From Terriglobia bacterium (GTDB lineage: Bacteria > Acidobacteriota > Terriglobia > 20CM-2-55-15): a stretch of 64,000 nucleotides of DNA. The stretch covers positions 1,216,001-1,280,000 of the forward strand of contig CAXWPJ010000009.1 of assembly GCA_963664115.2 (NCBI GenBank). Reading direction: 5' to 3'. Both the position numbers and the translations under genes were made by a program. Below the pieces are notes generated by a model. It saw nothing but the letters and a program-made list of their open reading frames with translations, ran no database searches and was not told the origin of the DNA. Every line of letters starts with the position of its first letter. Within the stretch, counting starts at the first letter, position 1. Shown here piece after piece: positions 8,388-60,520 of this stretch.

Positions 8388-9713
8388 CTATTCCGTTACT
8401 TCGGCTTTTGATTCTCCTCCCAGGCTTCCCGCGGGCACGAACTTTGCCCGGTCCTGAAGAATCTTAAGAGTCTTGGTATTGCTGATCTGTCCTTTGATCT
8501 TTTCGATGCCGTTGTTTCCGTTCAATGCCTCGCGGACACTATGCGTGGACTGCTGCATTTGAGTGGCCATCGCCTCGATTTCCTTGTCGATTTCCTCTTC
8601 CGATACTTCGACGTCCTCCTTGTCGGCGAGATGATCCAGTATGAGTGATCCCCGAACGTCGCGTACGGCCTGGTCGTATTGCTCGTTGCGAACCTTTCCC
8701 CAGTCCAGATCCAACTGCTGCGGGTTGATCCCCTGCCGCGACAAATCTCTCATCAGGCGCTGCAGTCGAACCTGCACCTGGTGTTCCACGAGCGATTCCG
8801 GGACTTCGAATTCGTTGTTTTCTTCCAGCCAGTGAAGCAAGGCGTCCCGCATCTGCTCGTCGGCGCGGGTCTGTTTGTGTTCTTCGAGATTATTCCGGAC
8901 TTCCACCCGGAGGTCTGCCAGCGTCGGGTAGTCTCCAAGTCCCTGGGCAAACTCGTCGTCGAGCGCAGGGCGCTTTTTCTCCTTGATCGATTCGAGGTGT
9001 ACCGTGTACTCGGCCAACTTGCCGGCCAGCTTCGGTTCGGGATGATCGTCGCGGTATTTCACGTCGAAGGTCTTGTCTTCACCTGCCCGGGCGCCTGTCA
9101 GATTTTCGGTGAACTCCTTGATCGTCGTTTCGCCTCCAATCTCGCACAGAGCTTTTTCGGCCGATAGAGCATCGTCGTTCTCCTCCCCTTCCAGAGTGCC
9201 TTTAAAGGAGATTTCGACAAAGTCACCCTCCCCGGCCGCACGATCGTCTTCGACCGGCGTCATTTCAGCGCGTTCCTCGACCATCCGGTCCAGCGTGTCA
9301 TCCACCTCTTCTTCGGTGACCTCGGTGGGGACTTCTTCAATCGGAATATTCGCGTGGTTCGTAACGTCGAGCGTGGGATAGATCTCAAAGACCGCTTTGA
9401 ATCGGAGTGGGGCGCCCTTCTCGTAGTCGACTTCCTCAAACTCAGGCGAATCGACGATATTTAGATCTTTCTCTTTGACCGCATCGGAAAAATAGTGGGG
9501 CAGAAGGTGCTGGTACATCTCCGAAATAATATCGTCCCGATAGCGGGTCTTGATCACACCCAGCGGAGCCTTTCCTGGACGGAACCCGGGTACGCGGGCC
9601 TGCTTTGCAAACTTGCGCGCGACAGCCGTAATTTCATCGCTGACAACGTCTTCGGGAATTTCGATTTCGAAACGCTTCTTTACGGTACTGATGTCGGTCA
9701 GTTCTGCCTTCAT
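8388..9713 (-). CDS. tig: Trigger factor
   Basis: VPGFRPGKAP ribosome-binding motif, FKBP-like middle domain, canonical position upstream of clpP. Confidence 0.96.
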   Translation of the reverse strand: MKAELTDISTVKKRFEIEIPEDVVSDEITAVARKFAKQARVPGFRPGKAPLGVIKTRYRDDIISEMYQHLLPHYFSDAVKEKDLNIVDSPEFEEVDYEKGAPLRFKAVFEIYPTLDVTNHANIPIEEVPTEVTEEEVDDTLDRMVEERAEMTPVEDDRAAGEGDFVEISFKGTLEGEENDDALSAEKALCEIGGETTIKEFTENLTGARAGEDKTFDVKYRDDHPEPKLAGKLAEYTVHLESIKEKKRPALDDEFAQGLGDYPTLADLRVEVRNNLEEHKQTRADEQMRDALLHWLEENNEFEVPESLVEHQVQVRLQRLMRDLSRQGINPQQLDLDWGKVRNEQYDQAVRDVRGSLILDHLADKEDVEVSEEEIDKEIEAMATQMQQSTHSVREALNGNNGIEKIKGQISNTKTLKILQDRAKFVPAGSLGGESKAEVTE

Positions 9714-9750
9714 GAAATGAGTTTTCCGCTACAGGTTGTAAGGGGCCGAG

Positions 9751-9832
9751 TGCGAAAGGAGGGACTCGAACCCTCAAGGGTTACCCCACTGGATCCTAAA
9801 TCCAGCGCGTCTGCCAGTTCCGCCACTTTCGC
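9751..9832 (-). tRNA. tRNA-Leu(TAG)
   Basis: Reverse complement GCGAAAGTGGCGGAACTGGCAGACGCGCTGGATTTAGGATCCAGTGGGGTAACCCTTGAGGGTTCGAGTCCCTCCTTTCGCA: acceptor stem, anticodon stem CTGGA/TCCAG with TAG, long variable arm, GTTCGA T-loop; CCA not encoded. Confidence 0.96.
9793..9832. repeat. att site (left junction), 40-bp direct repeat = 5' half of tRNA-Leu
   Basis: atcctaaatccagcgcgtctgccagttccgccactttcgc is identical at 22168-22207. Confidence 0.93.
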
Positions 9833-9847
9833 GCACGTTTAAAATCA

Positions 9848-9876
9848 ATTATTTGGAGAATCCTGCCACTTTCCAA
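9848..9876 (-). promoter_or_regulatory. Candidate island-supplied sigma70 promoter for tRNA-Leu/tig operon
   Basis: Minus strand TTGGAA-N17-AATAAT, ending 15 nt upstream of the tRNA 5' end, inside the integrase 3' end. Confidence 0.4.
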
Positions 9877-10630
9877 TTAGGCGTCGATGGGGAGATTCGT
9901 GGGGACTCGACTCCTAATTTTGGCAGCTTCGCCACGAACTCTCGTTTGTAATCCATCGACAAGTGAGTATATCGCATCGTCATCTTCGGGTCCTTATGTC
10001 CCATGAGCTCCATTTGCGCTTTACTCGTCACTCCGCTCATCGCCAGCCATGATCCGTAGCAATGCCGGAGGTCATGGAAACGGAAGTCTTTCAGCCCGGC
10101 ACGTTCTACTGCGTTACAGAACGCCGTTCTCCAGTCCTTCCAGGGTTTCCCGTACCGATTGATGAATACCAAATCCTCTGGAGCCCGTTCACGCTCGGCC
10201 TTCAGTTGATTCAACGCCTCGAAGAGATCTTCCGTCATAGGGACTGTCCGCGTCTCACCGTTCTTGGCGTAGCAGCTCTCGACGGTGATCGACCGGTTCC
10301 GTATATTGACGTTGGACCAGCGCAAGGATGTGATTTCTGACTTCCTGAAGCCCGTATGCATCGCCATCAAAACGACGACGCGGAAATCAGGGTTGCAGTT
10401 AGCCAGCAGCGTCTGGACCTCTTCCTGGGTCAAATAGCGCGTCCTACCGTTATCTTCGCGGTACAGCTTCACTTCGCTGACCGGATTCTTCTTGGCGAAG
10501 CCCCACTTGGCGCACACGTTGAAGAGGTTTTTGAGCAGAGCCAACTCTCTGTTGACCGTGGCATCCGCAGCCTTCGCCTTCTTAGCGCTCCCGTTTGTAC
10601 TTCTCGATCAGGAGGATTGGAGAGAGACAT
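9849..10630 (-). pseudogene. Tyrosine integrase, N-terminally truncated and frameshifted
   Basis: Catalytic domain intact (TGFRKSE, AKNG, FHDLRH, LMGH, MRYTH), but upstream homologous IEKYKRER lies in a different frame from ADATVNRELALLK (shift near 10584) and the N-terminal domains are missing. Confidence 0.8.
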
Positions 10631-10705
10631 GGCGTGGATTCCGACCTGCGATTTCTCAAACTCCAGCACTATCACAGCTATATCCTGCGGTGACCGGCTT
10701 CACGC

Positions 10706-11416
10706 TCAAATATGGAACACGCGCATATGCATGCCGCCGAGAGAAATTCGGCAGAGCAGATCGAATCTGAACTTGCACTTCGTCCTATCGAAGAATTCAA
10801 AGAATGCTCGCGTCTCGCCGGTGTTCGGGTTATCTGTCCAATCGTCAAAGCACAGGTAGGCGCCATCCACAAGCCGACCCTCAAGAAATTCCAAACATTC
10901 AGCAGCTGGCTGATAAAGGTCGCAGTCAATCCGGGCAAAGGCGACGGAGGTTATGTTCGCCCGGATGTCAGGACGCGCCAGCGTATCTGAAAACCAGCCC
11001 TTGACGAGGGAAACACTAGGGCGAGATTTCGCTTTCAACCGCTCCAAGACGGATTCGTAATCGGCGGCGAACTGACCCTTTTGCCAATAAGGGGCGTCAA
11101 GAGAGGAAGGCTCAGGTAGCCCTTCAAAACTATCGAATCCGTAAATATTGATCTTCAGTCCGATCTCTTCTGAGTACTGGATCAATTGTTCGAGGCTATT
11201 TCCTACAGACACGCCGAATTCCAACAGATCCCCTTCAATCAAGGTATCGTGGACGTTCGTCAAAAACTGTTTCCACATACGGCTCTCTATTTTCCAGATG
11301 GTCGCTTGGAGCTCCAACGCTTCGGGAGACCCCCAAGGGAAAGGGAATCGAATCCAGGCTGGCGGACCGTCGGGCTCACTCTGGAAGGCGGTCTTGTAGA
11401 GCTGGTCGTAATCCAT
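10706..11416 (-). CDS. TylF/MycF-family O-methyltransferase
   Basis: LEFGVSVGNS, GFDSFEGLP, VKGWFSDTL, RIDCDLY, CFDDW motifs. Confidence 0.88.
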   Translation of the reverse strand: MDYDQLYKTAFQSEPDGPPAWIRFPFPWGSPEALELQATIWKIESRMWKQFLTNVHDTLIEGDLLEFGVSVGNSLEQLIQYSEEIGLKINIYGFDSFEGLPEPSSLDAPYWQKGQFAADYESVLERLKAKSRPSVSLVKGWFSDTLARPDIRANITSVAFARIDCDLYQPAAECLEFLEGRLVDGAYLCFDDWTDNPNTGETRAFFEFFDRTKCKFRFDLLCRISLGGMHMRVFHI

Positions 11417-11557
11417 TCAGAACCTCGATTCCTTCTGTCCCATCCAGCAAACCTGACGGCATCGTGGCAAGCCGCGTGCGCGCCACACTTCTCCCATCCC
11501 ACCCTTGCCGAGGAGACTCAGGATCTCGTAGTGGCCGAGTTTAGAGCCAGATTCCAT
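11417..11557 (-). pseudogene. Ser/Thr kinase N-terminal stub 1 (46-aa ORF)
   Basis: [28 protein letters not shown] (Gly-rich loop) followed by unrelated sequence; its TGA directly abuts the TylF ATG. Confidence 0.85.
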
Positions 11558-11633
11558 GTTCAAAGTGTGTCGCTGAAAAAACCGAGAAAAACTCGGTAAA
11601 CGATACTAGAGGTGGGTGTTAGGCGCTATCAAA

Positions 11634-11670
11634 TTCTCAACGCCTGATAAACATTGGCGGACACTGAGAA
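11634..11670 (-). repeat. Degenerate inverted copy of palindromic site (A')
   Basis: Reverse complement TTCTCA GTGTCCGCCAA tgt TTATCAGGCGT TGAGAA (spacer shortened to 3 bp). Confidence 0.6.
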
Positions 11671-11689
11671 ACCCCAGTAATTTGCCCAA

Positions 11690-11729
11690 TTCTCAACGTC
11701 CGACAAGATGATTTCTCAGGACTTGACCC
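11690..11729 (+). repeat. Palindromic 6-11-6-11-6 site (A)
   Basis: TTCTCA ACGTCCGACAA GATGAT TTCTCAGGACT TGACCC; homologous copies at 14920, 18224 and, inverted, 14772. Confidence 0.85.
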
Positions 11730-11811
11730 CGAGAGTCACGGCACCGGCACCCGTTCTTTCAGTTCTTCAATGTTGACTCACTGGAATCACACCGCGACTT
11801 TTGAGTCCAGC

Positions 11812-12456
11812 TCAGCGCGCTAACGAGCTCAGGTTCAGGGCCGTCATGGCGACGACGTAGATCGCGACAAAGTAGTACCAGCCACCCACCAGCTTCGGCA
11901 TCCGAAAGGGAGAAACGTTTAGGATGGCGAGTGTAACGACCGCAACGTAGAGTGCCCACGAGAACGCAGGGTGCCCCAATAGCTCACGGAACGGAAACAG
12001 AGCCGTCACAACGATGATATTGCTGTCGATCGGCAGGCCGCTGTACGCGCCGCCGTCGTGGCCAAGAATGTTGAAGTGAGCCAACCGAATCGCTCCCGCA
12101 ATCACCAGCAGAAAAGCGCCTGGTAGAAACCAGGGCTCGAAGTCGCCAATGCTGATCAGGAGCATTGCGGGAGCGACGCCGCTGGATACCATATCGGTAA
12201 GGGAGTCCAGTTGCGCGCCGAAGGCCCGGTCCTCGTCGGTCCGATCGGTCATTCGCCGAGCCAGCGGACCATCGAACCAATCGCAGAACAGCGCCCACAG
12301 CAGAGCTGTGCTGGCGGCGGTATAGGCGCCGCGCACACTGAACCAAATAGCCAGAATTCCGCATACCAACCCCGCCAAGGTCAGCAGGTTGGCTCGGTCG
12401 TAGACAAAAGACAGGGCGCTTCGTCGGCCGGATGGACTCGTCATTGGGGCAGGCAT
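11812..12456 (-). CDS. CDP-alcohol phosphatidyltransferase (PssA/Pcs-like)
   Basis: DWFDGPLARR...FGAQLDSLTDMVSSGVAP signature; multiple TM helices. Confidence 0.9.
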   Translation of the reverse strand: MPAPMTSPSGRRSALSFVYDRANLLTLAGLVCGILAIWFSVRGAYTAASTALLWALFCDWFDGPLARRMTDRTDEDRAFGAQLDSLTDMVSSGVAPAMLLISIGDFEPWFLPGAFLLVIAGAIRLAHFNILGHDGGAYSGLPIDSNIIVVTALFPFRELLGHPAFSWALYVAVVTLAILNVSPFRMPKLVGGWYYFVAIYVVAMTALNLSSLAR

Positions 12457-13607
12457 TTCCGCATCGCTTCGACGAGCATATGGTTCTCCGCTGCCGTCCT
12501 GCTGGCGATGCGCAGATACCGATCGGCATCCGACATGTGTTTACCAGCGCAGTGCTTGACGAAGATGTTGTGCTCCACGAAGAGCCGTTTGGCGATGACC
12601 GGACCGGATGGGCCTGGAGCTGGGAGACGACACATTACGAAGTTAGCCTGAGGTCGATATGCTGTCATTCCGGGTATCTCGTTCAGCCCTTCGTAGAGCT
12701 CATCGCAGTGTTCGCGAACCAGAGCGCAACTCTGCCTGAACGCCTTGCGCCAGCGCGGTGCCTCGCGCAGGAAGGCTTCCGCGAAACCGTTGATGTTCCA
12801 GATGGGCAACTCGGCGCGCACCGCGTTCGCGAATTCCTCATTGGCCGTCAGGAGATAGCCCAGCCGCAGTCCGCCGATCCCGAAGGACTTGCTCAAGCTC
12901 TTGAGGACCGCGAGGTTGGGAACGCGGTCAACCCAACCCTCCACGCTCAACTCCTGATAGTCGTTTGCAAAGTCGATGAAGGATTCATCGACAACGAGCA
13001 TGCACTCGGCCGATTCGAGTTGCGCGGCAAGGCGCAAGATGTCTGCTCTGGGCACTGCCAACGAGGTGGGATTGTTAGGTGTCACTACGATGGCCAGTTT
13101 TGCCTCGCTCTCGAGAACCCGTTGGGCAAAGGCATCTACGTCGAGTTTGAAAGTGGGAGAGGGCAGTTCGAACGGGACGAAGGCGCCAGCTCTCGCAGCG
13201 TCCTCGTACTCGTTGAACGAGGGCACAGGACAGGCGATCGGGCCGGGAAGGCGACCAGCGATGATCTTAATCAGTTCCGAAGCCCCGTTTCCAACCAGAA
13301 TGCGAGAGGAAGGCTGACCGATCAAAGTACCCACGAGCCGCGTGACAACTTCCTGTCCCGGAGGGTAGTTGAACACCAGCTCTCGCAAGTTGTTCTCAAA
13401 ATGTACGAACATCGTTTTAGGCGGGTAATAGGGATTGTACAGGTAGGCGTGATCGATAAACCCAAAGCGCCAATATCCCCCGTGCTGGCTCTGGACGTGG
13501 TCGTAACGCTCCTCGCCTGAGTTGGATAGATACTCAGCCGCCAATCGGTCACTTTCATCGTCGATCTCGCGCTTACCGGGCGTGAGATTCCATCGGTCGG
13601 CTTTCAC
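12441..13607 (-). CDS. PLP-dependent class I/II aminotransferase/decarboxylase (HisC/CobD-like), probably lacking an N-terminal nucleotidyltransferase domain
   Basis: GNGASELI, TPNNPT, VVDESF, KSLSKSFGIGGLRLGY PLP-lysine motif; N-terminus begins with an EIDD remnant. Confidence 0.88.
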   Translation of the reverse strand: MKADRWNLTPGKREIDDESDRLAAEYLSNSGEERYDHVQSQHGGYWRFGFIDHAYLYNPYYPPKTMFVHFENNLRELVFNYPPGQEVVTRLVGTLIGQPSSRILVGNGASELIKIIAGRLPGPIACPVPSFNEYEDAARAGAFVPFELPSPTFKLDVDAFAQRVLESEAKLAIVVTPNNPTSLAVPRADILRLAAQLESAECMLVVDESFIDFANDYQELSVEGWVDRVPNLAVLKSLSKSFGIGGLRLGYLLTANEEFANAVRAELPIWNINGFAEAFLREAPRWRKAFRQSCALVREHCDELYEGLNEIPGMTAYRPQANFVMCRLPAPGPSGPVIAKRLFVEHNIFVKHCAGKHMSDADRYLRIASRTAAENHMLVEAMRKCLPQ

Positions 13608-13634
13608 GTAGATCTCCCTGAATCTGCCAGAGCG

Positions 13635-14471
13635 TTAACTTGCATTCTCTAGCATAAAAAAATGGTTCTGGAGCTTTGGCCAGCGCACACGAAGCCGCGC
13701 CGCCGCTCGGGGAAGAAGCCCGAAGCATACGGGCGACGTAGCCCGTAGCGACCACCAGGTCAAAGCGCCAAGAAAAGGTGAGGTGTGCGGCAGCATACGC
13801 AGGTAGCGGCGTCGCAGTTCGACGAGTTCGACTGCGATCTCCATATAGGTATAAGCGTAGTTTCGACGTGTGTCGACGCGCGACAAGCCAGCCTCTCGAA
13901 AGAGCGTTCGGTAAACGTCGACGCTACGATAGATCGCATGGTACTCGCCCTCTCTGTGCTCGTAACCGTTCGCAACGGTAGTCTCCCGTAAAACGACTCG
14001 CCCCCGATCACCGAGGCGTTCGATAACTGCTTGAACGAGCGCGATCGTGTCAGCGTCGCTCAGGTACATGCAGATTCCTCCTAAAAAGACGAGATCAAAT
14101 GGCCCCGGCGGCAATGGCTCTCGAACGTCCTGGTTCAGAAGCTCCACGTTCGACCGGTCCGTGAGCTTCTTTTTTGCAGCGACCAGCATCGCAGGGCTCT
14201 GTTCAATCCCAATGACGCTGCCGAAGCGCTGAGCGAAGAACTCGGTCCAGGTCCCCGACCCACAGCCCAAGTCAAGTACACGTGCTTGCGGCCCCCCGAC
14301 ATCGAGCCAGTCGCGTATCGCTCGGCGTTCCTTCTGGAAGCGATAACGAACAGCGTTTTCGGGCAAGTCTTGTGCGTGGGCCATGTAGCTCGCACAAGCC
14401 GCCGTGTCGGGGCCAGCTTGAGCAAAGTAGCGCCTAACCTCCCGGTAGTCGATCTGGTATTTGCCACTCAT
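13635..14471 (-). CDS. Class I SAM-dependent methyltransferase (resembles phosphoethanolamine N-methyltransferase domains)
   Basis: VLDLGCGSG motif I; FDLVF...MYLSD...VVLRET segment. Confidence 0.85.
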   Translation of the reverse strand: MSGKYQIDYREVRRYFAQAGPDTAACASYMAHAQDLPENAVRYRFQKERRAIRDWLDVGGPQARVLDLGCGSGTWTEFFAQRFGSVIGIEQSPAMLVAAKKKLTDRSNVELLNQDVREPLPPGPFDLVFLGGICMYLSDADTIALVQAVIERLGDRGRVVLRETTVANGYEHREGEYHAIYRSVDVYRTLFREAGLSRVDTRRNYAYTYMEIAVELVELRRRYLRMLPHTSPFLGALTWWSLRATSPVCFGLLPRAAARLRVRWPKLQNHFFMLENAS

Positions 14472-14697
14472 GTTCTGTCGCGCACCTTTTACGCGATAGG
14501 CACCACAAACTACGTTTCAGCAGTCCGGTCGGTGTCGCTGGGCCTCGCTCTCGGCCCCCGCTGGTCAACTCATGCGGACTTAAACCGCCGCATTCGTTGT
14601 CAAAGTAGATTTTCGCGGGCTTTCCACACCTCGTCCATGACTCCTTACTTATTGCGGAGAGGATCTCGTAGCAGCCGAGTCGGGTGCCAGGGGGCAT
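14434..14697 (-). pseudogene. Ser/Thr kinase N-terminal stub 2 (degenerate)
   Basis: MPPGTRLGCYEILSAISK; DNA atggacgaggtgtggaaagcccgcg corresponds to the MGEVWKAR segment in a shifted frame. Confidence 0.7.
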
Positions 14698-14737
14698 GAT
14701 TCAGCGTGGACTGTTCTGAGCGGCGCAAACTCACTAA

Positions 14738-14766
14738 ATGATATGTAAATAAGGGGTTAGAAGCAA
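14738..14766 (-). promoter_or_regulatory. sigma70-like promoter of the repeated unit
   Basis: Minus strand TTGCTT-N17-TATCAT, ~40 bp upstream of the stub ATG; equivalent element at 11597, 18162 and 62833. Confidence 0.6.
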
Positions 14767-14771
14767 ATAGA

Positions 14772-14811
14772 GTCTCAAGTCCTGAGAAACGACCTTGTCG
14801 GACACTGAGAA
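14772..14811 (-). repeat. Inverted palindromic site (B')
   Basis: Reverse complement TTCTCA GTGTCCGACAA GGTCGT TTCTCAGGACT TGAGAC. Confidence 0.85.
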
Positions 14812-14919
14812 TAGGCGAGCTTCGAGTGTCGCAGTAATTCATTGAAACAATGAGAGATATAGCTCGTTAGCGACCAATCGAGGAAGGGCAGGCGAGAGGA
14901 GGATTTCCGTTCGGTGAAA

Positions 14920-14959
14920 TTCTCAATGTCCGCGAAGATGATTTATCGGGACCTGAGAA
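14920..14959 (+). repeat. Palindromic site (B)
   Basis: TTCTCA ATGTCCGCGAA GATGAT TTATCGGGACC TGAGAA. Confidence 0.85.
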
Positions 14960-15004
14960 TCGTTTTTAAGGCAGGGCTCAAGAAAATTCGATGGCCGCCG
15001 GCTG

Positions 15005-15211
15005 GTGCAGCACTTGTTATGCCGTTTCTTCGCTGAAACAGAGAATGTATCCGTCGGGAACGGAGGCGAATCGGAGTGGTCGCCCGATGGCAGGACGCTC
15101 TACTTCCGAAACGGAAATCAGCTGCTGGCCGCCGACGTTCTTGATGCCGATAGTATGACTCTCGGTGTGCCGCGGCGGCTCCAGCTTTGCGACGGCTTAT
15201 ATCTCTCGTAA
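15005..15211 (+). pseudogene. Fragment of TolB/PD40-like beta-propeller (typical C-terminus of kinase-propeller proteins)
   Basis: VSVGNGGESEWSPDGRTLYFRNGNQLLAADV...LGVPRRL; isolated fragment. Confidence 0.65.
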
Positions 15212-15328
15212 TTCACCATCCTGACGCCTGCTTCGCCCCCTGATAGCGGCCGTTCGAAGACAATGCCTCAGGTCTGAGATGAACTCAGGGTTTAACTTTG
15301 GGACTCGGCGGATTTCGGGCCCCTCGCG

Positions 15329-15739
15329 CTAGTCTTTGCTCGTGCCGCGAATGTTGGAACCCGTTCCTCGCGAGTAATACACGCCGTTCACTTCCATACC
15401 CATGAACTCCCCGGTGCGTCGGGACTTGTTCCGTGGAGGATGAGCGATGATCTTGACCCGATTCCCGACCTTGAGAATCTGCGGCGAGATTCCGGATGCC
15501 ACCATGGACGCGGCCCCGGAGCCCTCAAAACCCCAGCTCTCCGTCCCGCCCTCGGCAATCGGCACATCGAGGGTGACCCACATGTGCGGATTCCTCCACT
15601 CGACGTTGGTGACCACGCCTTCGACGGAAATTAACACGTCCACGTCGAACATCGCACGCGAATGATGGGCCGACAGCGGCGCCGCCATTGACACGAATCC
15701 GAGAAGCATCGCTAGGATGCCGAGTGCCTTCCAAAACAT
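15329..15739 (-). CDS. Exported DUF6152-like protein
   Basis: Signal peptide then AHHSRAMFD...EGVVTNVEWRNPHMW; GGAGG RBS before MFWK. Confidence 0.75.
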   Translation of the reverse strand: MFWKALGILAMLLGFVSMAAPLSAHHSRAMFDVDVLISVEGVVTNVEWRNPHMWVTLDVPIAEGGTESWGFEGSGAASMVASGISPQILKVGNRVKIIAHPPRNKSRRTGEFMGMEVNGVYYSRGTGSNIRGTSKD

Positions 15740-15792
15740 ACCTGCCTCCTTCAAAATCGCGACAGCGATTCGCCACCCAAGTGCTGAATTCG

Positions 15793-16651
15793 TTAACCGA
15801 GGCGCGAAAGATAGGTCTCCGGTCCATCCTCCGGCCGGCACAAGACCTCTTCGATTTGATCGACCGTCTGACGCTTGAAGGTGACCGTCGGCGTCTCCCA
15901 GGGTATCGTCAGCGAGTTCTCATCTTCTGCCCTCGCCTGATACTCGAGCGTGTCGGCATCGATGCGACGCCACCGCTCGACGACGTGCATCGCGTCAGAG
16001 GTCAACCACACGCCCGTGCTGGCGTTCGTCGGCCTATCCTCGGGGCTCGCCAGCCATCCTTCACCGTTGAATGAAACCACGTCGACCACGAGCGTGTCCC
16101 CTTCCCACACTGCCGTTGAGTCGCCCATGTAAGTGGGATACAAATACTGCTCCGCGGTGTGCGGCCTTCCGGTCGTTGGAATGATCCGGTAGACCGGGTA
16201 CGCCTCGGTGAGCACGAATGCGAATCCGGGGCTCTGAATAATCTGGATTGGGTGCCCCAGCATCGCGGCGCGCGGAAAAGCGGGAGGAGCGCAGCAGGGT
16301 TGGGCAGCGAGAGTTCCTCCATCCAGGGTTCCGGTCGTTGGAATGATCCGGTAGACCGGGCGGGTCATCCTCCGCCGAGAGTTCCTCCATCCGAGCGCGC
16401 GCGGCGGGCGTGTACAGTCCCTCGAGCGTCGCCAGATCAAACGTATCGCGTCCGGAACTAGCGCCAAGGGGCGGCGCCCTCCAGACACCAGCTAGATCTG
16501 GCTCTCCCCACTCGGTCCGCGCCGAAAACGAACCGGTACCTGTCGAGGCGCTGTCGTTCGCGCCGTTCTCGTCCATCACTAGTCGCAGGCCGAGCAGCAC
16601 GGCAGCTCCAACGACCAAGCCAATGCCAATAGTCATCGCACGTCCGCTCAT
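15793..16651 (-). pseudogene. Exported hypothetical protein, frameshifted/scrambled near 16310-16395
   Basis: N-part MSGRAMTIGIG...RTEWGEPDLAGVW and C-part GDSTAVWEGDTLVVD...VERWRRIDADTLEY are in different frames; internal repeat 16167-16198/16329-16360. Confidence 0.65.
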
Positions 16652-17925
16652 TGGACACCCCCGTCGAGGGTTCAACGGCGGGCGCACCCGACGCCTCCCT
16701 CTCTGCTTGCTGGACGGCGAACTCCCGGTGTCGCGCGTCCAACTCGGGATCCGGGAAGCAGAGTGACTCAAAGAGCGTGTCGTACGGCATGAGGCCCCGG
16801 CGAACGACCGATCCGGTCCATGGAGCCGTGAGCATTTTCGAGTCTTCAACGACCACGCTGTATTCAATGATCTGCGCGTCCGGCCGACTCCAGCGCTCGA
16901 CGATGCGCAATGCGTCCGAGGAGGTTTGCGGCAGCTGATCCGGCGGCCGAGCTGGCCAAGCCAGGGCTTGCCGTTGAAGTTCAGGGTCACCTCCACGACC
17001 AGCGTGTCGCCCTCCCAATGACCGACCGACGAGCCTTGAAAGGAAGGCTTGTGCGACGCACTCGGTTGGGGTTCGTTCTCGCCAACGATTGGGATGATCC
17101 GGAAGTAGTCACCGCCCTCGTTGAGCATCAGGAGGTATCCCGGGGCTGACACCAGTTGGATGGTTCCGGCGCCGAGCCCGAGCGCGGCCAGCAGTGATAG
17201 TTGGGGGTATCGATGCCTTGCCAATCGATCAGGCCGACCGCGGCACCTCCGCCCTCTCTGTATTCGCGCACCTCCGGACGGTACAGCGACTCCAGCGGAA
17301 CCGGGGGCCGCAGCCAATAGACGCCCTGGGCCAAGCCAAAATCCACGACCAGCGTGTCGCCCTCCCAATGACCGACCGACGAGCCTTGAAAGGAAGGCTT
17401 GTGCGACGCACTCGGTTGGGGTTCGTTCTCGCCAACGATTGGGTGATCCGGAAGTGGCCCTCGTTGAGCATCAGGAGGTATCCCGGGGCTGACACCAGTT
17501 GGATGGTTCCGGCCGCCGATCAGTGAGTTGGGGGTATCGATGCCTTGCCAATCGATCAGGCCGACCGCGGCACCTCCGCCCTCTCTGTATTCGCGCACCT
17601 CCGGACGGTACAGCGACTCCAGCGGAACCGGGGGCCGCGTGACTGTCGCGTCGGGCCAATAGACGCCCGAAAAATCCGGTTTCCCGTCCCACGACGTGCG
17701 TGGCACTGGATATTGCACAGGATCAGATTCGTACGCAACGAGACGCCCTCTCGCCTCGGAGCGAGTCTCCACGCCTTCAGGGAGGAGTTCTACAATCCGC
17801 TCTGTCCAGTCCGCGCCCGCCCCCGCCGCCTGTGGCGGGGTATAGGGCTCTATCTGAGCCGATGCGCGAAAAGCACCGAGGGCCACAAGCAGCGCCATTA
17901 CGGCGATTCCGGAACGAGTCAGCAT
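16650..17925 (-). pseudogene. Exported hypothetical protein of the same family, disrupted by a ~350-bp tandem duplication
   Basis: RTSWDGKPDFSGVYW, GSSVGHWEGDTLVV, LRIVERWSRPD motifs scattered over frames; 16992-17326 repeated at 17342-17668. Confidence 0.65.
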
Positions 17926-18122
17926 CTCCGTCCCCCTAACTTTCTGATGCTCAAAGCATGCATTTCTGTGTGAAAAGAGAAGGTGGAAAATTCTTCAGGC
18001 AGCGTCTTGATCGCAACTTCACGCCCAAGTTTCGTGTCCTTGGCACGCCATACCTCACCCATACCACCCTTACCTAAGAGCGTTGAGATCTCGTAGTGGC
18101 CGAGTTTGGTACCGGATTCCAT
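17919..18122 (-). pseudogene. Ser/Thr kinase N-terminal stub 3
   Basis: [45 protein letters not shown] (subdomains I-II) then unrelated sequence; stop overlaps the next start (ATGCTGA). Confidence 0.9.
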
Positions 18123-18365
18123 AAAATAGTGTGTGCCGAATCGAAAAGCGAAAATGTTGAATAAATCTAACTACAGGTGGGGGTTATAAGCAAGGAAGTT
18201 GTGAGCCCGTGGGCCTCGCCTAATTCTCAACGTCCGAGAAGATGATTTATTGATGGTATGGACTCCTCTTTGATGACTGAGTCGGCATCGAAGTGCCAAA
18301 GTCATTTTGAGCCTCGCAATAAAGCGGGCGAAACACGTGTACGTGTGAACAAAAAGGAGTCCGAG

Positions 18366-19400
18366 ATGAAGAATAGAACGATAGCAGTGGATCTGGCAAA
18401 GAATGTTTTTCAAATTGGTGTTTCAGATCGCCCCGGGCATGTAGAGAAAACCTATCGTTTAAGTCGGGCAAAGTTTCTGGGGTTCTTTGCGAACCAGGAG
18501 CTGGCGACCGTGGTGATGGAAGCCTGCGGATCCGCCCATTACTGGGGTCGGAAGATCCGGGAACTGGGACACACGGTCGTTCTGATCTCGCCGCAGTATG
18601 TGACGCCCTACGTCAGGCGCAACAAGACCGACCGTACGGATGTGAAAGGATTGTTGGAAGCCTATCGTGACAGCGATATTCATCCAGTGCCGGTCAAAAC
18701 CCTGGCCCAACAGCAACTGACCTCATTGCATCGAATCCGTTCGGCGTGGATGCGAACCCGAACCGCACGGATCAATACGGTGCGGGGGTTGTTACGGGAG
18801 TTTGGCTACGTGATCCCGACCGGAGCGGATCATCTGGTGCCGGGGGTAATGGAGCTGATCGAAGATGCAGATGTCGTCATCCCCAGTGTCGTTCGGGAGA
18901 TGTTTCACCAGGTGTGTGGCGAGATCCGTGAATTGGAATCTCGCATGCGATCGGTGGAACAAGAGTTGAAGACGCTGGCTCGGCAGATGCCTGAGGTCGC
19001 GCGTCTGACGTCGATTCCCGGCATCGGCCTGTTAACGGCAACGGCAATGGTGGGGTTTGTTGGAAACATCAAACGATTCCGAACGTCCCGCCATTTTGCC
19101 AGTTATCTGGGACTCACACCCCGGGAACATTCCAGTGGCAACCAGCGACGCATGGGCCGGATCAGTAAGCAAGGCGATCGTTACCTCCGGATGCTGTTGG
19201 TTCATGGGGGCCGTTCCCTGTTGTGGAGTGCCCATCGAGAGGGCGCCACACCGACACCTCTCCAGCAATGGGGTCTCCAGAAACACGAGTTCCGCGGACA
19301 CAACAAGGCAATCGTTGCACTGGCCAACAAGTTGGCGCGTCGCGTGTGGGCGGTTTGGAACCGTGACTGTGACCATCAGGCCCGGTATCAGGCGGCCTGA
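18366..19400 (+). CDS. IS110-family DEDD transposase/recombinase
   Basis: AVDLAKNVFQ, MEACG, KTDRTD, SIPGIG, GLTPREHSSG, GRISKQGD, ALANKLAR; start at MKNR after AAGGAG. Confidence 0.93.
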   Translation: MKNRTIAVDLAKNVFQIGVSDRPGHVEKTYRLSRAKFLGFFANQELATVVMEACGSAHYWGRKIRELGHTVVLISPQYVTPYVRRNKTDRTDVKGLLEAYRDSDIHPVPVKTLAQQQLTSLHRIRSAWMRTRTARINTVRGLLREFGYVIPTGADHLVPGVMELIEDADVVIPSVVREMFHQVCGEIRELESRMRSVEQELKTLARQMPEVARLTSIPGIGLLTATAMVGFVGNIKRFRTSRHFASYLGLTPREHSSGNQRRMGRISKQGDRYLRMLLVHGGRSLLWSAHREGATPTPLQQWGLQKHEFRGHNKAIVALANKLARRVWAVWNRDCDHQARYQAA

Positions 19401-19690
19401 CCCGGAACAGTCGGAATATCTTTTCAGCGAGCTGCGATGAGGTTCGAGATGATGGCGTACCGGTCAGACCGGCGCGGGGCAACGCCGACAAGTCCTTTGG
19501 CCCTTAGAGGCCGTTATTTTATCGGTTGGCTCCCCGCGCGCAAATTTCCATCATGGCCTGGAACAATACAGTTCCACTTTTGAGGCCGAAGATACGGGTG
19601 CAGTCGACTAGCTACTCACCTCGTAACTTCTAGTCAGTCCTGCTGAATGCATTTTGCCGAAGAAAGCTGACGGGAGAGCTGCGCCTACTT
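19401..19690 (+). ncRNA. Putative bridge/seek RNA of the IS1111-type element
   Basis: Stem gcgcgggg/ccccgcgc enclosing CAAGTCC and TTTAT (match target); second loop CCATCAT and AGATA (match IS ends). Confidence 0.7.
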
Positions 19691-19731
19691 GACAGAGGAG
19701 TCCAGATACGGGACTTGACCTCATTCTTTGG

Positions 19732-20208
19732 TCACTGATCTTGCCGTTCTTGTTTGAGCTTATCTTGATAGATCTGCTCGTACTGCTGAATGCGTTCTAA
19801 ATATCCGTCGGGATCGACGAAGCGCTCCGGATCGTAAGAGTCTCCAGGCTCGTATTTATCGTGAAGTCCGAAATGACCGGCATGTGATGAAACCCAGACA
19901 TCGAAAGTTCCTGCCAGCCTCTTTTGCCTGTCGAAGGTCTCAGCGTAAGCCTCACTGAAATTCGGGTAAGCCGGTGAATCGAGCAGCCGCACACGATACG
20001 CGATGCTGTAGGGATTCGCGAGGCCGCGCGCGACGACAACGACTCGGATATCCTGCCCTTCGGCGGTCTCGTAGGTCTTGGGCACGGGCGGCACCTTGAG
20101 CTCCGGTGCGACGGGGATGCCGTTCGCAAACGGCACGTTTTGCTGGGCGGCGGCCGGCGCCCAGACCAAGATCAACGATATAAGGAGTCCCCGTTTCATA
20201 TTTTCCAC
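19732..20208 (-). pseudogene. Chimeric ORF: signal peptide + PQQ sugar-dehydrogenase-like start fused to subclass B3 metallo-beta-lactamase-like C-terminus
   Basis: IRVVVVARGLANPYSIA followed by YPNFSEAYAETFDRQK...DVWVSSHAGHFGLHDKY...FVDPDGY. Confidence 0.6.
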
Positions 20209-20352
20209 CGACCTCGAGTTTCCAGCGACGCACTGACCGCTTATTGCTATTGTGTATGAGCATAAAAAGCTCGGGGCGGGATGCGAAAGCTTGGCGTGAC
20301 GCCGGTTAGGTGAACTGCCCCACAGTTCAAATAGGCAGCCAGGGGGAAGGTC

Positions 20353-21807
20353 ATGTTGAACAAGAGTTACCTTTGCGGCGCCGCGTTGCTCCTCATCGCG
20401 ATCGGCACACAGATCGCTTGGGCAGATGACGCCGGATTATTGCGTACTACCTACGCGCTCGACGAAGCCCGTGGTTATTGCCTCGATATCCGGGGTTTCG
20501 GCGAAAACGCGAGAGTCGACGAACCGTTGCAGGTACATACGTGCAAATATGGCGCGGAGCTCGGGGATCAGATCTTTGCACGCACCGACGGGACGCGCGC
20601 GATATCGCTGCCCGAATACGATCGCTGCCTGGCCGCCACGGCGCTCGAGCCCGGCGCCACGCTACACGCGAGCGAGTGCACCGACAGCGCCAGGCAGCAG
20701 TGGCGCTTCGAGTGGGGGCGGCTGAGCCCCGAATCGCGACCGGATCTGTGCGTGTCGCTTGCCGGCGGCGCCGGAGCGGTCGCGGGAACGCCCGTATTGA
20801 TCACGCCCGTGTATCACAGCAGGTCGGTGAGCTTGGAGCGCTGCGATGACGCGCACAAGGCCCTCCAGACATTGCGCTTCTCGCCGCCCGATGAACGAGG
20901 CTTAAGCACGGCCGATGTCGCGCGTGAAGGCCTGCCGGCCGATGTCGCGGAGCGCCTCGCGGCTTTCGGGCGCGTGTTCGATGGACGGATCGCGGGCGAG
21001 ACGGCTCAGATCGTAGCGCCCGTACCAACCCTCTACGAAGCGGCTGAGATCGAAGTCGTGGAAGGGCTCGCCTATGGCTCGCACGAGCGCCAGCAACTCG
21101 ACATTCACACGGCGACGGCGCGCAACTCGAACGATCCCGTGCCCGTCATTGTCGTCTTTCACGGCGGCGGCTTGATCGGCGGCAGCAAAGAATCGACGGC
21201 GGCCGCTGCGAACTATTTCGCAAGCTTAGGACTAGTCGGCGTCAAGTCGAACTATCGTCTCGCCGGAACTCATCCTTGGCCTGCCGGCGCGCAAGACATC
21301 GGCGCGGCCGTGACTTGGCTCAGCGAGCATGCCGATGAATACGGCGGCGATCCCGAGCAGATATTCGTCATGGGCATCTCGACGGGCTCCTTCCATTCGG
21401 CGACTTACGTGTTCAGGCCCGAGCTCATGCCGCCCGGCACGATCCGCGCGGCCGGCGCGATCCTCATGTCGGGCCCGTATACGTTCGATTTCGACAATCC
21501 GTCGCCCGGTGAGCGCGCGTATTTTGGCGAGAATGCGTCGGCGTATGCCGAGCGCGTCGTCCCAGGCAATGTCAGCAGCACCGATATTCCGGTGTTGTTT
21601 ACGACGGCGGAGTGGGATGCGCCGCGCTACACGCGCTCATTGGCCATTCTGTTGCACGAGCTCGTCGTTGAGCATGGCGTTATGCCGCGCTATGCGCAGA
21701 GCCTAGGACACAATCATACGTCACAGTTGCTCTCGCTCGGCACGGCCGAAAAGAGCGTTTCGACGGAAATCGTCGACTTCATCGGGCAGGTGACAAAAGG
21801 GGACTGA
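20353..21807 (+). CDS. Exported alpha/beta hydrolase (HGGG carboxylesterase type) with N-terminal ricin-B-lectin-like domain
   Basis: GYCLDI...QVHTC, RCLAA...C...QQW; HGGG, NYRL, GISTG nucleophile elbow, HNH. Confidence 0.8.
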   Translation: MLNKSYLCGAALLLIAIGTQIAWADDAGLLRTTYALDEARGYCLDIRGFGENARVDEPLQVHTCKYGAELGDQIFARTDGTRAISLPEYDRCLAATALEPGATLHASECTDSARQQWRFEWGRLSPESRPDLCVSLAGGAGAVAGTPVLITPVYHSRSVSLERCDDAHKALQTLRFSPPDERGLSTADVAREGLPADVAERLAAFGRVFDGRIAGETAQIVAPVPTLYEAAEIEVVEGLAYGSHERQQLDIHTATARNSNDPVPVIVVFHGGGLIGGSKESTAAAANYFASLGLVGVKSNYRLAGTHPWPAGAQDIGAAVTWLSEHADEYGGDPEQIFVMGISTGSFHSATYVFRPELMPPGTIRAAGAILMSGPYTFDFDNPSPGERAYFGENASAYAERVVPGNVSSTDIPVLFTTAEWDAPRYTRSLAILLHELVVEHGVMPRYAQSLGHNHTSQLLSLGTAEKSVSTEIVDFIGQVTKGD

Positions 21808-22118
21808 CGAGTCCCTTTTGCCGTTGGCGCTATGCGTAGTAGTACTGGCCCATATCACATTCGATGCCCCCATGAAGAAGGAATACTTGGCGAAGCTGCG
21901 TTCCTTTATTGAGTCATTAGAGACATCCCTCTCTGAATGACATGGGTGAACTCATCAAGTAGCGCGCAGACCCTCCAACCTCAGGACCAATCTAGCGGAC
22001 CATCACCCAGGATCGAGAACCTTAGGACTGGAGTGGTATAACTTGAAAACCGCCTCTTAGAAAAACGGCCCTTTTGTCCGAATTATTCTGACGACGTACA
22101 GGCTCGAACCCAACAAAG

Positions 22119-33044: not shown

Positions 33045-33593
33045 ATGGTTGACGGATTGATTCGGAACAAAGCAGCCGGTGGAAACGGTTTTTCGCTGAT
33101 CGAGGTTCTGGTCGTAGTTGGAATCATTCTCGTCCTGATTGGTGTGGCCTTGCCGAACCTGACCAGCATGAATGCCGCGATGTTGCTGGACGGGACCGCT
33201 CGCGGTATGGGTTCGCTGGTGCAAAGAGCCCATTACGACGCGATCAGCGACACGACCGGCTACCGTGTGGTGATCTACGGCGCGAACTCAAGTTCGAACG
33301 CAAACTCTTACAAGCTGCAGCGAATGGTTCCGGCCGCCCCTTTCAGCCTGACGGCAGGGTCCAACTGGACTGACGTCGGGGATCCTATTCCAATTCCGAG
33401 AGGGATTGACATGGTGACGAACGCCCCGGAAGTGAGTACGGGTGTTGTGGCGGTGATTCTTGACAGTGCCGGAGACGTCATCGATGAAAACGGTGCCTAC
33501 ATTACTTCGGAGATCACCATCACGCTTACCAATGATCTTGGAGACAGCAATATTGTCTATATCGCATCCACAAGTCACGTCCGGATCGTGTAA
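33045..33593 (+). CDS. Type IV minor pilin, FimT/GspH-like
   Basis: Prepilin site G|FSLIEVLVV plus hydrophobic helix. Confidence 0.85.
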   Translation: MVDGLIRNKAAGGNGFSLIEVLVVVGIILVLIGVALPNLTSMNAAMLLDGTARGMGSLVQRAHYDAISDTTGYRVVIYGANSSSNANSYKLQRMVPAAPFSLTAGSNWTDVGDPIPIPRGIDMVTNAPEVSTGVVAVILDSAGDVIDENGAYITSEITITLTNDLGDSNIVYIASTSHVRIV

Positions 33594-33993
33594 ATCAAGA
33601 TCCGGCGAGGCCGGAATGACTTTAGTCGAAGTGATGGTATCGGCCCTCATTTTGATCGTTGGGGTTATGGCGGCTGCCGGAGCTCTGACGGCCAGCATCA
33701 TTGGTACGAGGACCAGCCAGGACATCACACGAATCACGGCAGGTATGCGCCAGAAAATGGAAGAACTGAGATCGACGGACTATGCCTCACTCGCTACAGG
33801 CAGCGACTACCTGGATGTCAATGGCGCTTCCCAATCCAGTTCCACCGGAGCCGCTTACACTCGCACTTGGACCGTGACTGCAGATTCACCAACAGCCGGG
33901 CTTTCTAAAATCGACATTACAGTTACCGCCGCGCAGGTTTTCGTCCAAACAATACCGATTCAATTTTCAGTCAGCTCCTACAGGGCGCCGTAG
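33553..33993 (+). CDS. Type IV minor pilin, PilV-like
   Basis: G|MTLVEVMVS, KMEELR, YTRTWTV; probable TTG start at 33553 after GGAGA. Confidence 0.8.
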   Translation: MSISHPQVTSGSCKSRSGEAGMTLVEVMVSALILIVGVMAAAGALTASIIGTRTSQDITRITAGMRQKMEELRSTDYASLATGSDYLDVNGASQSSSTGAAYTRTWTVTADSPTAGLSKIDITVTAAQVFVQTIPIQFSVSSYRAP

Positions 33994-34028
33994 CCTTCCA
34001 GGGAGTTAGCATAATGAGGCTGTGACCT

Positions 34029-34940
34029 ATGAACACGAGCAGGAATCACGGATACTCACTCATCGAGATCATGGTTGCGCTCGCGGTATTGCTAGTCATT
34101 CTGGGAGCAGTCTTTCTGCTGGTGACTCAGAATCAGCAAACCTACCAGATTCAGCAAGCGCGGCTTGAAGCCGGGCAGAACGCCCGTCTTGCGTCAGAAA
34201 GAATCGGGCGCGAACTTCTTTCCGCTGGATACAACACGCCCAGCGGTGTCACACCCATCAACGGTGCGACTGCGAACAGTATTACTTTTTCAGGGGATGT
34301 GAACGACGACGGTACGGCTGAAAGGGTAACTTTCGCGTTGTCTGGAACGACGATCACGCGGACCAGTCAGCCTCTGGATGCAGACGGAAATCTGACCGGA
34401 ACCGCAACGACACAAACTCTTGCCTCCAATATATCCGCATTGGACTTCACCTATTTTCTCAATAGCGGTGAAGCCGGCACGTTTGTGGGGATGCCGGGAT
34501 CTCCGATCGCCTCCCTGAAGCCGAGGTTTGAAATCTTCGCATTTCTTCGCATTCTGGCCAGTCGAATGGGATTCGTCACTTACGCAGCACAGAATACAAA
34601 CTCAAACTCAAACTCAAACTCAAATTCGAACTCTAACGAAAGCAGTGCTGGCTCAGGCGGTCAAAATTCGGTGGCAACGGCCGATCTTGGACTGATTTCC
34701 CGGGTCAACTTGGGCGTGACCTCGGTTTCTACCACTGACGATCCGGTCTCAGGTGACCCGATAAGCGTGACGATAAATACCGATGTCACTCTGCGTGGTG
34801 AATCGATAACAGGCTTCATCACGTCGGGCGGTAGCGCCAACGCGAATTCAAACGCCAATTCAAACAGCAACACCAATAGCAACGCCAACGCGAACACGAA
34901 TACGAATACGAACAGTAATTCCAACAGTAACGGGAGCTGA
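34029..34940 (+). CDS. Type IV minor pilin, PilW-like, with Asn/Ser low-complexity tracts
   Basis: G|YSLIEIMVA, RELLSAGY; (NS)n and (NA/NT)n repeats. Confidence 0.85.
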   Translation: MNTSRNHGYSLIEIMVALAVLLVILGAVFLLVTQNQQTYQIQQARLEAGQNARLASERIGRELLSAGYNTPSGVTPINGATANSITFSGDVNDDGTAERVTFALSGTTITRTSQPLDADGNLTGTATTQTLASNISALDFTYFLNSGEAGTFVGMPGSPIASLKPRFEIFAFLRILASRMGFVTYAAQNTNSNSNSNSNSNSNESSAGSGGQNSVATADLGLISRVNLGVTSVSTTDDPVSGDPISVTINTDVTLRGESITGFITSGGSANANSNANSNSNTNSNANANTNTNTNSNSNSNGS

Positions 34941-56979: not shown

Positions 56980-57120
56980 CTCACTCCTTTTTTAACAGGT
57001 TTTTTTCGCAATTCGGGGTCAACGTCCCTGGAGGGAGTCGAAACGAAATTCTCGATAGTAATGTCGGATGGGGGGAATACCGGCCGGCAGATCACGGTCG
57101 GCGAATCTCACGGATTCGAT

Positions 57121-57210
57121 CGATGTGTCGCCTGTCTTTTGCTACACGGACCGGACCGATGTGTCGCTTGTCTTTTGCTATACGGACCGGACCGATGTGT
57201 CGCTTGTCTT
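57121..57210. repeat. 36-bp tandem repeat x2.5
   Basis: cgatgtgtcgcYtgtcttttgctaYacggaccggac. Confidence 0.85.
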
Positions 57211-57363
57211 CAAATAAAGGACACGATGCCATGGTTGCCTTACTCCTGTAGCGGAAACAAACAACCTAGAGAACTAGGCGAATCTTATAGAAGGAAGGTC
57301 GTCCGGTCAATTCAAACTGGCAAACAACAGCCGTTTACGGAAACAGGCGTCTGCTGCATCTTC

Positions 57364-60093: not shown

Positions 60094-60388
60094 AGTCGAA
60101 CTCCTTTGATTCGTGACACGAGATTTTGTGGTTGCTCTCCGCGCATACCGCAGTGCCACCCTTGAGGTTACCGGAGTGACGCCGCCAGACCAAAGACTTT
60201 CGCACGGGCGGTCTGGGAATTGGTGTTGTCGTTGAGACAAGGTAGTGGAAGAGCTCAGAGTGAAGGGAAACGCGTCCCCGCCAAGGCGGTAAACCTAGGA
60301 GACGACAGGGACGCCCCCTTCTACCCCCTGAAATCGGCTAGCCCAGCCTTCAACTTTAGGAATGTTGTCATCGGGGGAATTCCGAATC

Positions 60389-60520
60389 ATGGAAACCGGC
60401 ACCAGATATGGCCATTACGAGATCCTCGCACTCAAAGGCAAGGGTGGCATGGGTGAAGTGTGGCGTACGCGAGACACCGGGTTCGGGTGTGCAGCGGCGA
60501 CCAAAGGCTCCATTACATGA
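60389..60520 (+). pseudogene. Ser/Thr kinase N-terminal stub 4 (43 aa)
   Basis: [30 protein letters not shown], then unrelated sequence and stop. Confidence 0.85.

Follow-up and report, generated by a model that had tools for sequence, protein, structure and literature searches.

An IS1111-group insertion sequence with predicted RNA guides for a repeated 39-bp palindrome in a Terriglobia bacterium

An IS1111-group insertion sequence interrupts a repeated 39-bp palindrome in the genome of a Terriglobia bacterium. Very probably it is an intact element with two guides for this site in its 3′ region, and it is predicted to move like ISEc11 and ISKpn4 into the palindrome, which is likely a module-exchange site. 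The mechanism is the published seekRNA/bridge RNA one, and the target site is the less ordinary part. Positions refer to the window, the whole stretch of 64,000 nucleotides analysed (contig CAXWPJ010000009.1), unless another sequence is named.

Results and discussion

An intact IS1111-group element

Judged by its sequence, the element is an intact IS1111-group insertion sequence with the following parts.

18251..19708, + strand: IS1111-group element, 1458 bp, no target duplication, ends identical in other copies
18251..18257, + strand: left terminal extension TGATGGT, 7 bp (7/3 rule, available part of PMC11187229)
18258..18269, + strand: left subterminal inverted repeat, complementary to the right repeat at 11 of 12 positions
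18366..19400, + strand: transposase, 344 aa, with D9, E52, D89, D92 and the GLxP...SG motif (S257)
19401..19708, + strand: 3′ non-coding region, conserved RNA scaffold at about 19445-19605
19694..19708, + strand: right subterminal repeat (19694-19705) and 3-bp extension ATA

A profile search identifies PF01548 and PF02371 in the transposase, which scores 316.6 bits against NF033542 (cut-off 140). Its closest named relatives in the plasmid collection are ISPa62 (48% amino acid identity) and ISKpn4 (46.5%), and the solved structures (ISCro4, IS621) match it weakly. Elements of the IS1111 group have subterminal inverted repeats of 11–13 bp with extensions of 7 bp on the left and 3 bp on the right (PMC11187229, available part). 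The DEDD and PF02371 domains, the size (344 aa, with 330–350 aa usual in the group), the ends, the 3′ region [308 bp of non-coding DNA 3′ of the transposase gene against 115 bp on the 5′ side] and the insertion mode of the present element are all those of the group; insertion is into a single target at one position and in one orientation, with no duplication (seven of eight left ends and all nine near-identical right ends).

Insertion at one base of a repeated palindrome

The first-pass annotation of this DNA described a precise insertion into a palindromic site, and excision of 18251-19708 does restore a 39-bp site that matches two other copies in the window with at most three mismatches (0 expected). 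The site is built of two imperfect inverted arms around a 6-bp centre (arm-6-arm).

18222..18250, + strand: left part of the split site, made up of the left arm, the centre (GATGAT) and the initial 4 bp of the right arm
19709..19718, + strand: remainder of the right arm of the split site
11688..11726, + strand: empty site, GATGAT centre
14918..14956, + strand: empty site, GATGAT centre
14775..14813, − strand: empty site, GGTCGT centre, back to back with the copy at 14918

The genome holds nine left ends within four substitutions of this one, eight of them exact, and seven of these eight come after ...TTTAT inside the 39-bp repeat. All nine near-identical right ends, from a total of 12, continue as C(A/G)GGACTTGA, so that other copies do sit at the same base of the same motif, a check that had been proposed. 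The three divergent right ends lie at the same place, in the mirror arm and elsewhere, respectively, and one copy (C3) has an unrelated left flank and the site on its right side only. All seven site insertions are in the TTTAT variant, which is the spelling of the guide and is present in 33 of the 167 empty sites.

Two target guides change with their flanks

The target-binding arm lies in the 3′ non-coding region.

19472..19539, + strand: target-binding arm closed by GCGCGGGG/CCCCGCGC, inner hairpin at 19498-19513
19489..19496, + strand: top guide, complement of target top-strand sequence to the right of where the element inserts (covariation)
19518..19525, + strand: bottom guide, with the same letters as the target top strand on both sides of the insertion point, thus pairing with the bottom strand (covariation)

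The enclosing stem consists of exact complements (19472-19479 and 19532-19539), and the guide strings CAAGTCC (19489-19495) and TTTATCGG (19518-19525) were correctly read from the outset. Against the site consensus the top-strand guide extends to 8 nt (CAAGTCCT), with A at that place in 152 of the 167 empty sites. The top-strand complement is 5′ and the bottom-strand match 3′; the order in IS1111 elements is likewise top-strand complement first (PMC11187229, available part). When the non-coding region is shuffled with its dinucleotides preserved, both target matches turn up in 2 of 20,000 shuffles.

Close homologues (59–93% identity, related genomes) provide 19 guide types, 18 of which have the flank required for the top guide (19489-19496) and 12 that for the bottom guide (19518-19525). 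The bottom guide agrees with its own left flank at 4.32 of 5 positions and with other flanks at 2.23 (n = 12; 0 of 100,000 permutations), and collapsing the types to n = 6 gives 154 of 100,000. Re-anchoring the top guide on the inner hairpin, with two registers allowed for cognate and non-cognate pairs alike, gives 6.45 of 8 against 3.98 (n = 18) and, collapsed to n = 13, 6.24 against 3.77, each with 0 of 100,000 permutations; an earlier fixed-register test with a wrong anchor was weaker (173 and 5,590 of 100,000). The flank match of the top guide is only 3 of 8 in 3 of the 18 types. A distant set (n = 36), comprising the 35 of 80 loci with both ends detectable plus ISKpn4, with guides taken from alignment columns, gives 4.39 of 5 against 1.74 for the bottom guide and 3.64 of 8 against 2.67 for the top guide (0 of 20,000 permutations for each). 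All these permutation counts overstate certainty because related elements are not fully independent. At the level of single bases, the homologues L083, L111 and L113 have TTTAA or TTTCT guides and are inserted in TTTAA or TTTCT variants of the site. In the comparison with homologous copies and their flanks, both target guides therefore change with the flanks, and together with the same-base copies this sustains the original proposal that the IS is programmed against the repeated site.

In the consensus fold of eight homologues the core of each target guide is unpaired; the single-sequence fold has the target guides partly paired. Paired matching segments that do not covary, which the first-pass annotation had named among the observations against its reading, are not what the target guides present, whereas CCATCAT of the second loop is paired in the consensus fold. 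Folding energy is not significant for the whole region (z = −0.69) or for 19460-19612 (z = −1.86), and an Rfam search of 9000-22000 returned tRNA only. The non-coding RNA scaffold aligns with that of ISKpn4, which is, with ISPst6, ISEc11 and ISPa11, one of the elements for which a seekRNA has been shown (PMC11187229, available part).

19689..19694, + strand: TTGACA, probable −35 box of a predicted circle-junction promoter, −10 box weak

A circle-junction promoter has precedent in IS1111 elements (PMC11187229, available part); a scan of the + strand of the linear element found no promoter. RNA-library contigs, which alone cannot show transcription, span 19410-19608 and 19428-19718, and neither a circle joint nor an empty-site joint is present among those listed. 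Four runs of one study with matching sequence are labelled sponge metagenome, one of them with a 1,008-bp piece that has two differences. If the element behaves as its family does (PMC11187229 and PMC11208160, available parts), it would form a circle whose junction promoter would yield a seek/bridge RNA, the RNA would be bound by the transposase, strand exchange would be carried out by the DEDD and serine residues, and the circle would recombine into one base of the 39-bp genomic palindrome.

Other IS1111 lineages use the same site

In genome G002 an element of 75% identity is present 11 times, each time at the mirror position of the left arm, in opposite orientation and with guides changed accordingly. 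Two of these left-arm elements form their own branch in the tree; left-arm guides could be derived from right-arm guides, and right-arm targeting may have arisen once or twice. The genome analysed here has a second IS1111-type element.

L230:201-1741 (G000:C12): second IS1111-type element, plus six or seven other copies

For this element (1541 bp, 23% amino acid identity, 7/3 extensions), all eight left ends and seven of eight right ends lie in the site centre, 5 bp from the insertion point of the first element and in opposite orientation, and its 3′ region has short candidate guide matches, read by eye. None of its ten relatives with detectable ends (67–70% identity) is in the site, which argues that its targeting was a separate event. 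At L116 (G002:C2:3551600-3553900) a right end of the second type and a left-arm element apparently share one site, 9 bp apart.

The site probably bounds exchangeable modules

A weight-matrix scan of the genome finds 167 strong empty copies (score of at least 28) and 177 with a score of at least 20, in 53 clusters, compared with 0 in the reversed genome. The GATGAT centre accounts for 130 sites and TGTCGT or GGTCGT for 18; a CCGGAT centre is dominant in G004 and present in G001. Nine of 301 genomes of the class have the site, all in two genera of one family. The inference that the site is abundant and conserved is borne out by the 167 strong copies and by this presence across two genera. The site also occurs in eight metagenome contigs, its exact pattern was not found in viral contigs, and its clusters are not enriched near tRNAs (5 of 53, null 7.3). 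A literature search that covered few subscription papers returned nothing relevant on the site, its system or an IS1111 element in such a site.

Among 114 close neighbour pairs, 74 are co-oriented main-type sites enclosing unrelated genes, the modules having a median of 2.1 kb and being rich in genes for kinases and for secreted proteins. Some modules, 350 and 1,250 bp long, are found repeatedly beside different neighbours and end at sites. Pairs of sites that share flanks do so mostly on one side only (56 of 67; 20 one-sided against 11 two-sided at stricter identity; 7 of 7 across genomes). Among 599 ends of low-copy repeats near sites, 37 fall within 30 bp of a site centre (null mean 6.9, maximum 16), a count that is possibly inflated, as such ends can be drawn to a shared repeat or to IS insertion points. 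Since the site has the arm-6-arm structure, is confined to two genera and often marks where homology stops, it is probably a module-exchange site. On balance we favour a site of tyrosine-recombinase type, with two arms and a 6-bp centre, that bounds exchangeable modules. Further, and more tentatively, the palindrome may be the crossover site of an undescribed module-shuffling system of the two genera and a shared niche for three or more IS1111 lineages (in the right arm, at the mirror position of the left arm and in the centre), with guides retuned by single bases to its variants.

Not all of the variation within the site follows this pattern. Site positions 1-5, 11 and 16 follow the left flank, and 17 and 28 follow neither (20 non-independent pairs); positions 17/28 differ in 55% of left-sharing (n = 11) and 56% of right-sharing pairs (n = 9), against 47% and 63% at random. 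This counts against an exchange site, as a single central crossover predicts otherwise. Such failure of internal variants to segregate with the flanks suits a different explanation, in which the IS is RNA-guided and the repeat is a protein-binding or regulatory element, spread with duplicated kinase genes, where homology breaks through ordinary recombination or gene conversion between short repeats. The sites are indeed tied to Ser/Thr kinase genes: a kinase-like gene ends within 200 nt of 38 of the 130 main-type sites and 24 Ser/Thr kinase starts adjoin the 167 sites, and no dedicated recombinase has come to light. We nevertheless consider this explanation rather unlikely, because a regulatory repeat sits poorly with discrete 6-bp centres between conserved arms, with the 74 co-oriented pairs around unrelated genes and with modules of 350 and 1,250 bp that end at sites beside different neighbours; 39 bp is, in addition, short for homologous recombination.

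Several features of the window concern the kinases and the neighbourhood of the sites. Remnants of the 5′ part of Ser/Thr kinase genes recur at 18043-18122, 11478-11557, 14659-14702 and 60384-60504, three of them adjoining sites. The sites of the GTCGT type lie ahead of an upstream region shared by kinases, and those of the main type often come after kinase stop codons. At 9750-10544, next to tig-clpP-clpX, the site-bearing island has on its left margin a tRNA-Leu by a truncated integrase. Short exact duplications (57–113 bp, about 330–350 bp apart) scramble a secreted-protein gene at 16992-17638 and may reflect decay or an assembly artefact. Further along, three identical repeat copies of more than 1 kb (36367, 46208, 57868) are probably another IS, and 33281-34930 and 57109-57216 hold low-complexity Asn/Ser-coding repeats and a 36-bp tandem repeat.

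The second loop probably reads the right end

The second loop of the RNA has three segments of interest.

19450..19455, + strand: internal TGATGG, pairs with CCATCA in the RNA fold
19548..19554, + strand: CCATCAT, possible donor guide for the left end and also a strand of an RNA helix (ambiguous)
19590..19597, + strand: AGATA-CGG, guide for the right end, with two bases after AGATA that agree with the target and not with the left end

The assignment of AGATA (19590-19594) to the IS right end holds: the segment repeats the terminal 5 bp of the IS in 42 of 43 elements, which represent five end types. Here AGATA is extended as AGATACGGG, with 9 nt the same as in the right junction. The base after AGATA is the first target base in 38 of 43 elements and the first left-end base in 33; it is C in the eight elements, this one included, that combine a left end in T with a target in C. 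For the second base, agreement is with the target in 40 elements and with the left end in 11 of the 43. As these bases follow the target, the AGATA segment here fits the right junction more closely than it does the predicted circle junction. We infer that the first two bases of the left extension are an imperfect core, and a 2-nt core read by both loops is suggested.

CCATCAT is present at 19548-19554 as first reported, but its proposed match to the circle junction is inseparable from the RNA helix with internal TGATGG. It is complementary to left-end positions 3-6 in 43, 43, 43 and 40 of 43 elements, positions that barely vary, and fails at positions 1-2 in 23 and 32 of 43. The helix formed by CCATCA and internal TGATGG shows compensatory change with 0 of 19 pairs broken, against 4 mismatches in 12 with the DNA left end. 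CCATCAT may be a guide, a helix or a switch. Both the intact helix and the failures at positions 1-2 would be expected if only the target loop worked, as a short seekRNA, with the protein reading the ends through the subterminal repeats and the second loop being structural, and an 82-nt seekRNA suffices for ISEc11 (PMC11187229, available part). This arrangement is unlikely here, as one can hardly account for the exact agreement of AGATA with the right end in 42 of 43 elements unless the two pair, complementarity at left-end positions 3-6 is present almost throughout, and the donor nucleotides of many IS1111 RNAs are placed in a multiloop [Durrant et al., PMC11208160, available part].

Candidate enzymes and other classes of site

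No cognate recombinase for the site was found among the recombinase candidates of the genome, and the recombinases common to the compared site-bearing genomes are only XerC, XerD and a prophage-type integrase. A 316-aa tyrosine recombinase, L151 (G000:C5:52057-53272), has an inverted pair of GTCGT-type sites around it, and on the outer side of each site a kinase gene starts. It was set aside as the site enzyme, being not found in G002 and G003 with the query used and having no site at any of 15 homologous loci. On the contig that carries IntI, the nearest site is about 196 kb away from it, and none of the three resolvase genes is beside a site cluster by coordinates. The 293-aa enzymes belong to IS91-type elements. 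These elements (tyrosine recombinase and Y2 transposase; G000:C1:92926, C1:108595, C2:196451, C12:159118, C12:486987, C3:2939, C12:570167) end within about 30 bp of a site in five of six identical copies, and two of their relatives interrupt a site.

Known classes of site were considered in turn. A canonical dif-like site, probably the chromosomal dif, is located elsewhere, at a change in GC skew (G000:C2 near 108138), and the palindrome was rejected as the chromosomal dif; compared by inspection with that dif-like site, it matches 8 of 11 positions in the left arm and at most 6 of 11 in the right arm, and was likewise rejected as a XerC/XerD dif/pdif site. An attC identity was set aside on account of the fixed sequence, the absence of hairpin covariation and the remoteness of IntI.

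As DNA, the site folds into a hairpin of about −12 kcal/mol, and IS91-type elements lie within or beside several sites. It could on these grounds be a REP-like single-strand hairpin moved by an HUH enzyme (RAYT or IS91-type), the IS being a REP-targeter like ISPa11 or IS621. The mirror positions 17/28, however, are paired in 53 sites where 55.8 are expected (n = 130), with no covariation, so the hairpin is not what is selected. The genome has two Y1 genes, both without flanking pairs of sites (a degenerate site lies about 260 bp from one), and none of 20 Y1 loci of relatives carries the site. With neither hairpin covariation nor a site-flanked Y1 transposase, REP/RAYT was rejected, and we regard the REP-like reading as quite improbable. 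Finally, matches of just 5–9 nt might be chance or relics, with targeting directed by protein; given 2 of 20,000 shuffles and covariation in two independent homologue sets, this is extremely improbable.

Comparison with known systems

IS1111-group elements are known to target attC sites and REPs. The IS1111-attC group (ISKpn4, ISPa62) shares with the present element a DEDD transposase of similar size, ATGGACTC-type subterminal repeats, 7/3 extensions, the 3′ non-coding scaffold, the guide order and insertion in a repeated site without duplication. Unlike in that group, the target here is not attC, and the guides and donor ends differ. The bridge RNA of IS621/ISCro4 [PMC11208160, available part; PDB 8wt6, 9t56] has two pairs of guides, for target and donor, an arrangement that the present element probably shares. 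In contrast to those elements, the present one has its RNA downstream of the transposase gene, not upstream, and the guide order reversed; the protein match is weak and C-terminal only (E ~2e-11), and the putative core is not the same on the left as on the right (TG versus CA/CG).

Parallels for the site itself are the pdif-targeting elements IS1202/ISAjo2, which specialize on an arm-6-arm site, and the dif modules of Acinetobacter, which are bounded by such sites, as is probable here (PMC10132070, available part). The IS1202/ISAjo2 enzymes are, however, DDE transposases that insert 5 bp beside the site with duplication, whereas the present element is predicted to be RNA-guided and splits an arm. 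In contrast to Acinetobacter pdif (same source), the present site lacks an arm of XerD type, and most of its copies point the same way. Integron cassette arrays resemble the arrangement in having co-oriented sites, often just after a stop codon, around unrelated genes, and IS1111 parasites; unlike attC, the present site is a fixed 39-bp sequence without hairpin covariation, with IntI about 196 kb away.

Implications

The element adds a further natural guide-target pair to a family described in 2024, with the engineering value of any IS1111 element. Its homologues form a useful series in which guides have been redirected: some now specify new sequences, some the mirror arm within one site, and some variants that differ by a single base. 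The right-end guide of IS1111 elements gains statistical support, where the founding papers, in their available parts, leave open the choice between a target-only seekRNA and a two-loop bridge RNA. In this clade the base after the right-end guide follows the target and not the circle junction, from which a testable prediction for excision can be drawn.

Should the target be a module-exchange site, the IS would have about 170 intergenic landing places, the split site being probably disabled, and the palindrome would be a new class of landing site for RNA-guided ISs that belongs to an uncharacterised shuffling system. Were the reading of an undescribed shuffling system to hold, the guides of such elements would be a natural read-out for finding unknown recombination systems.
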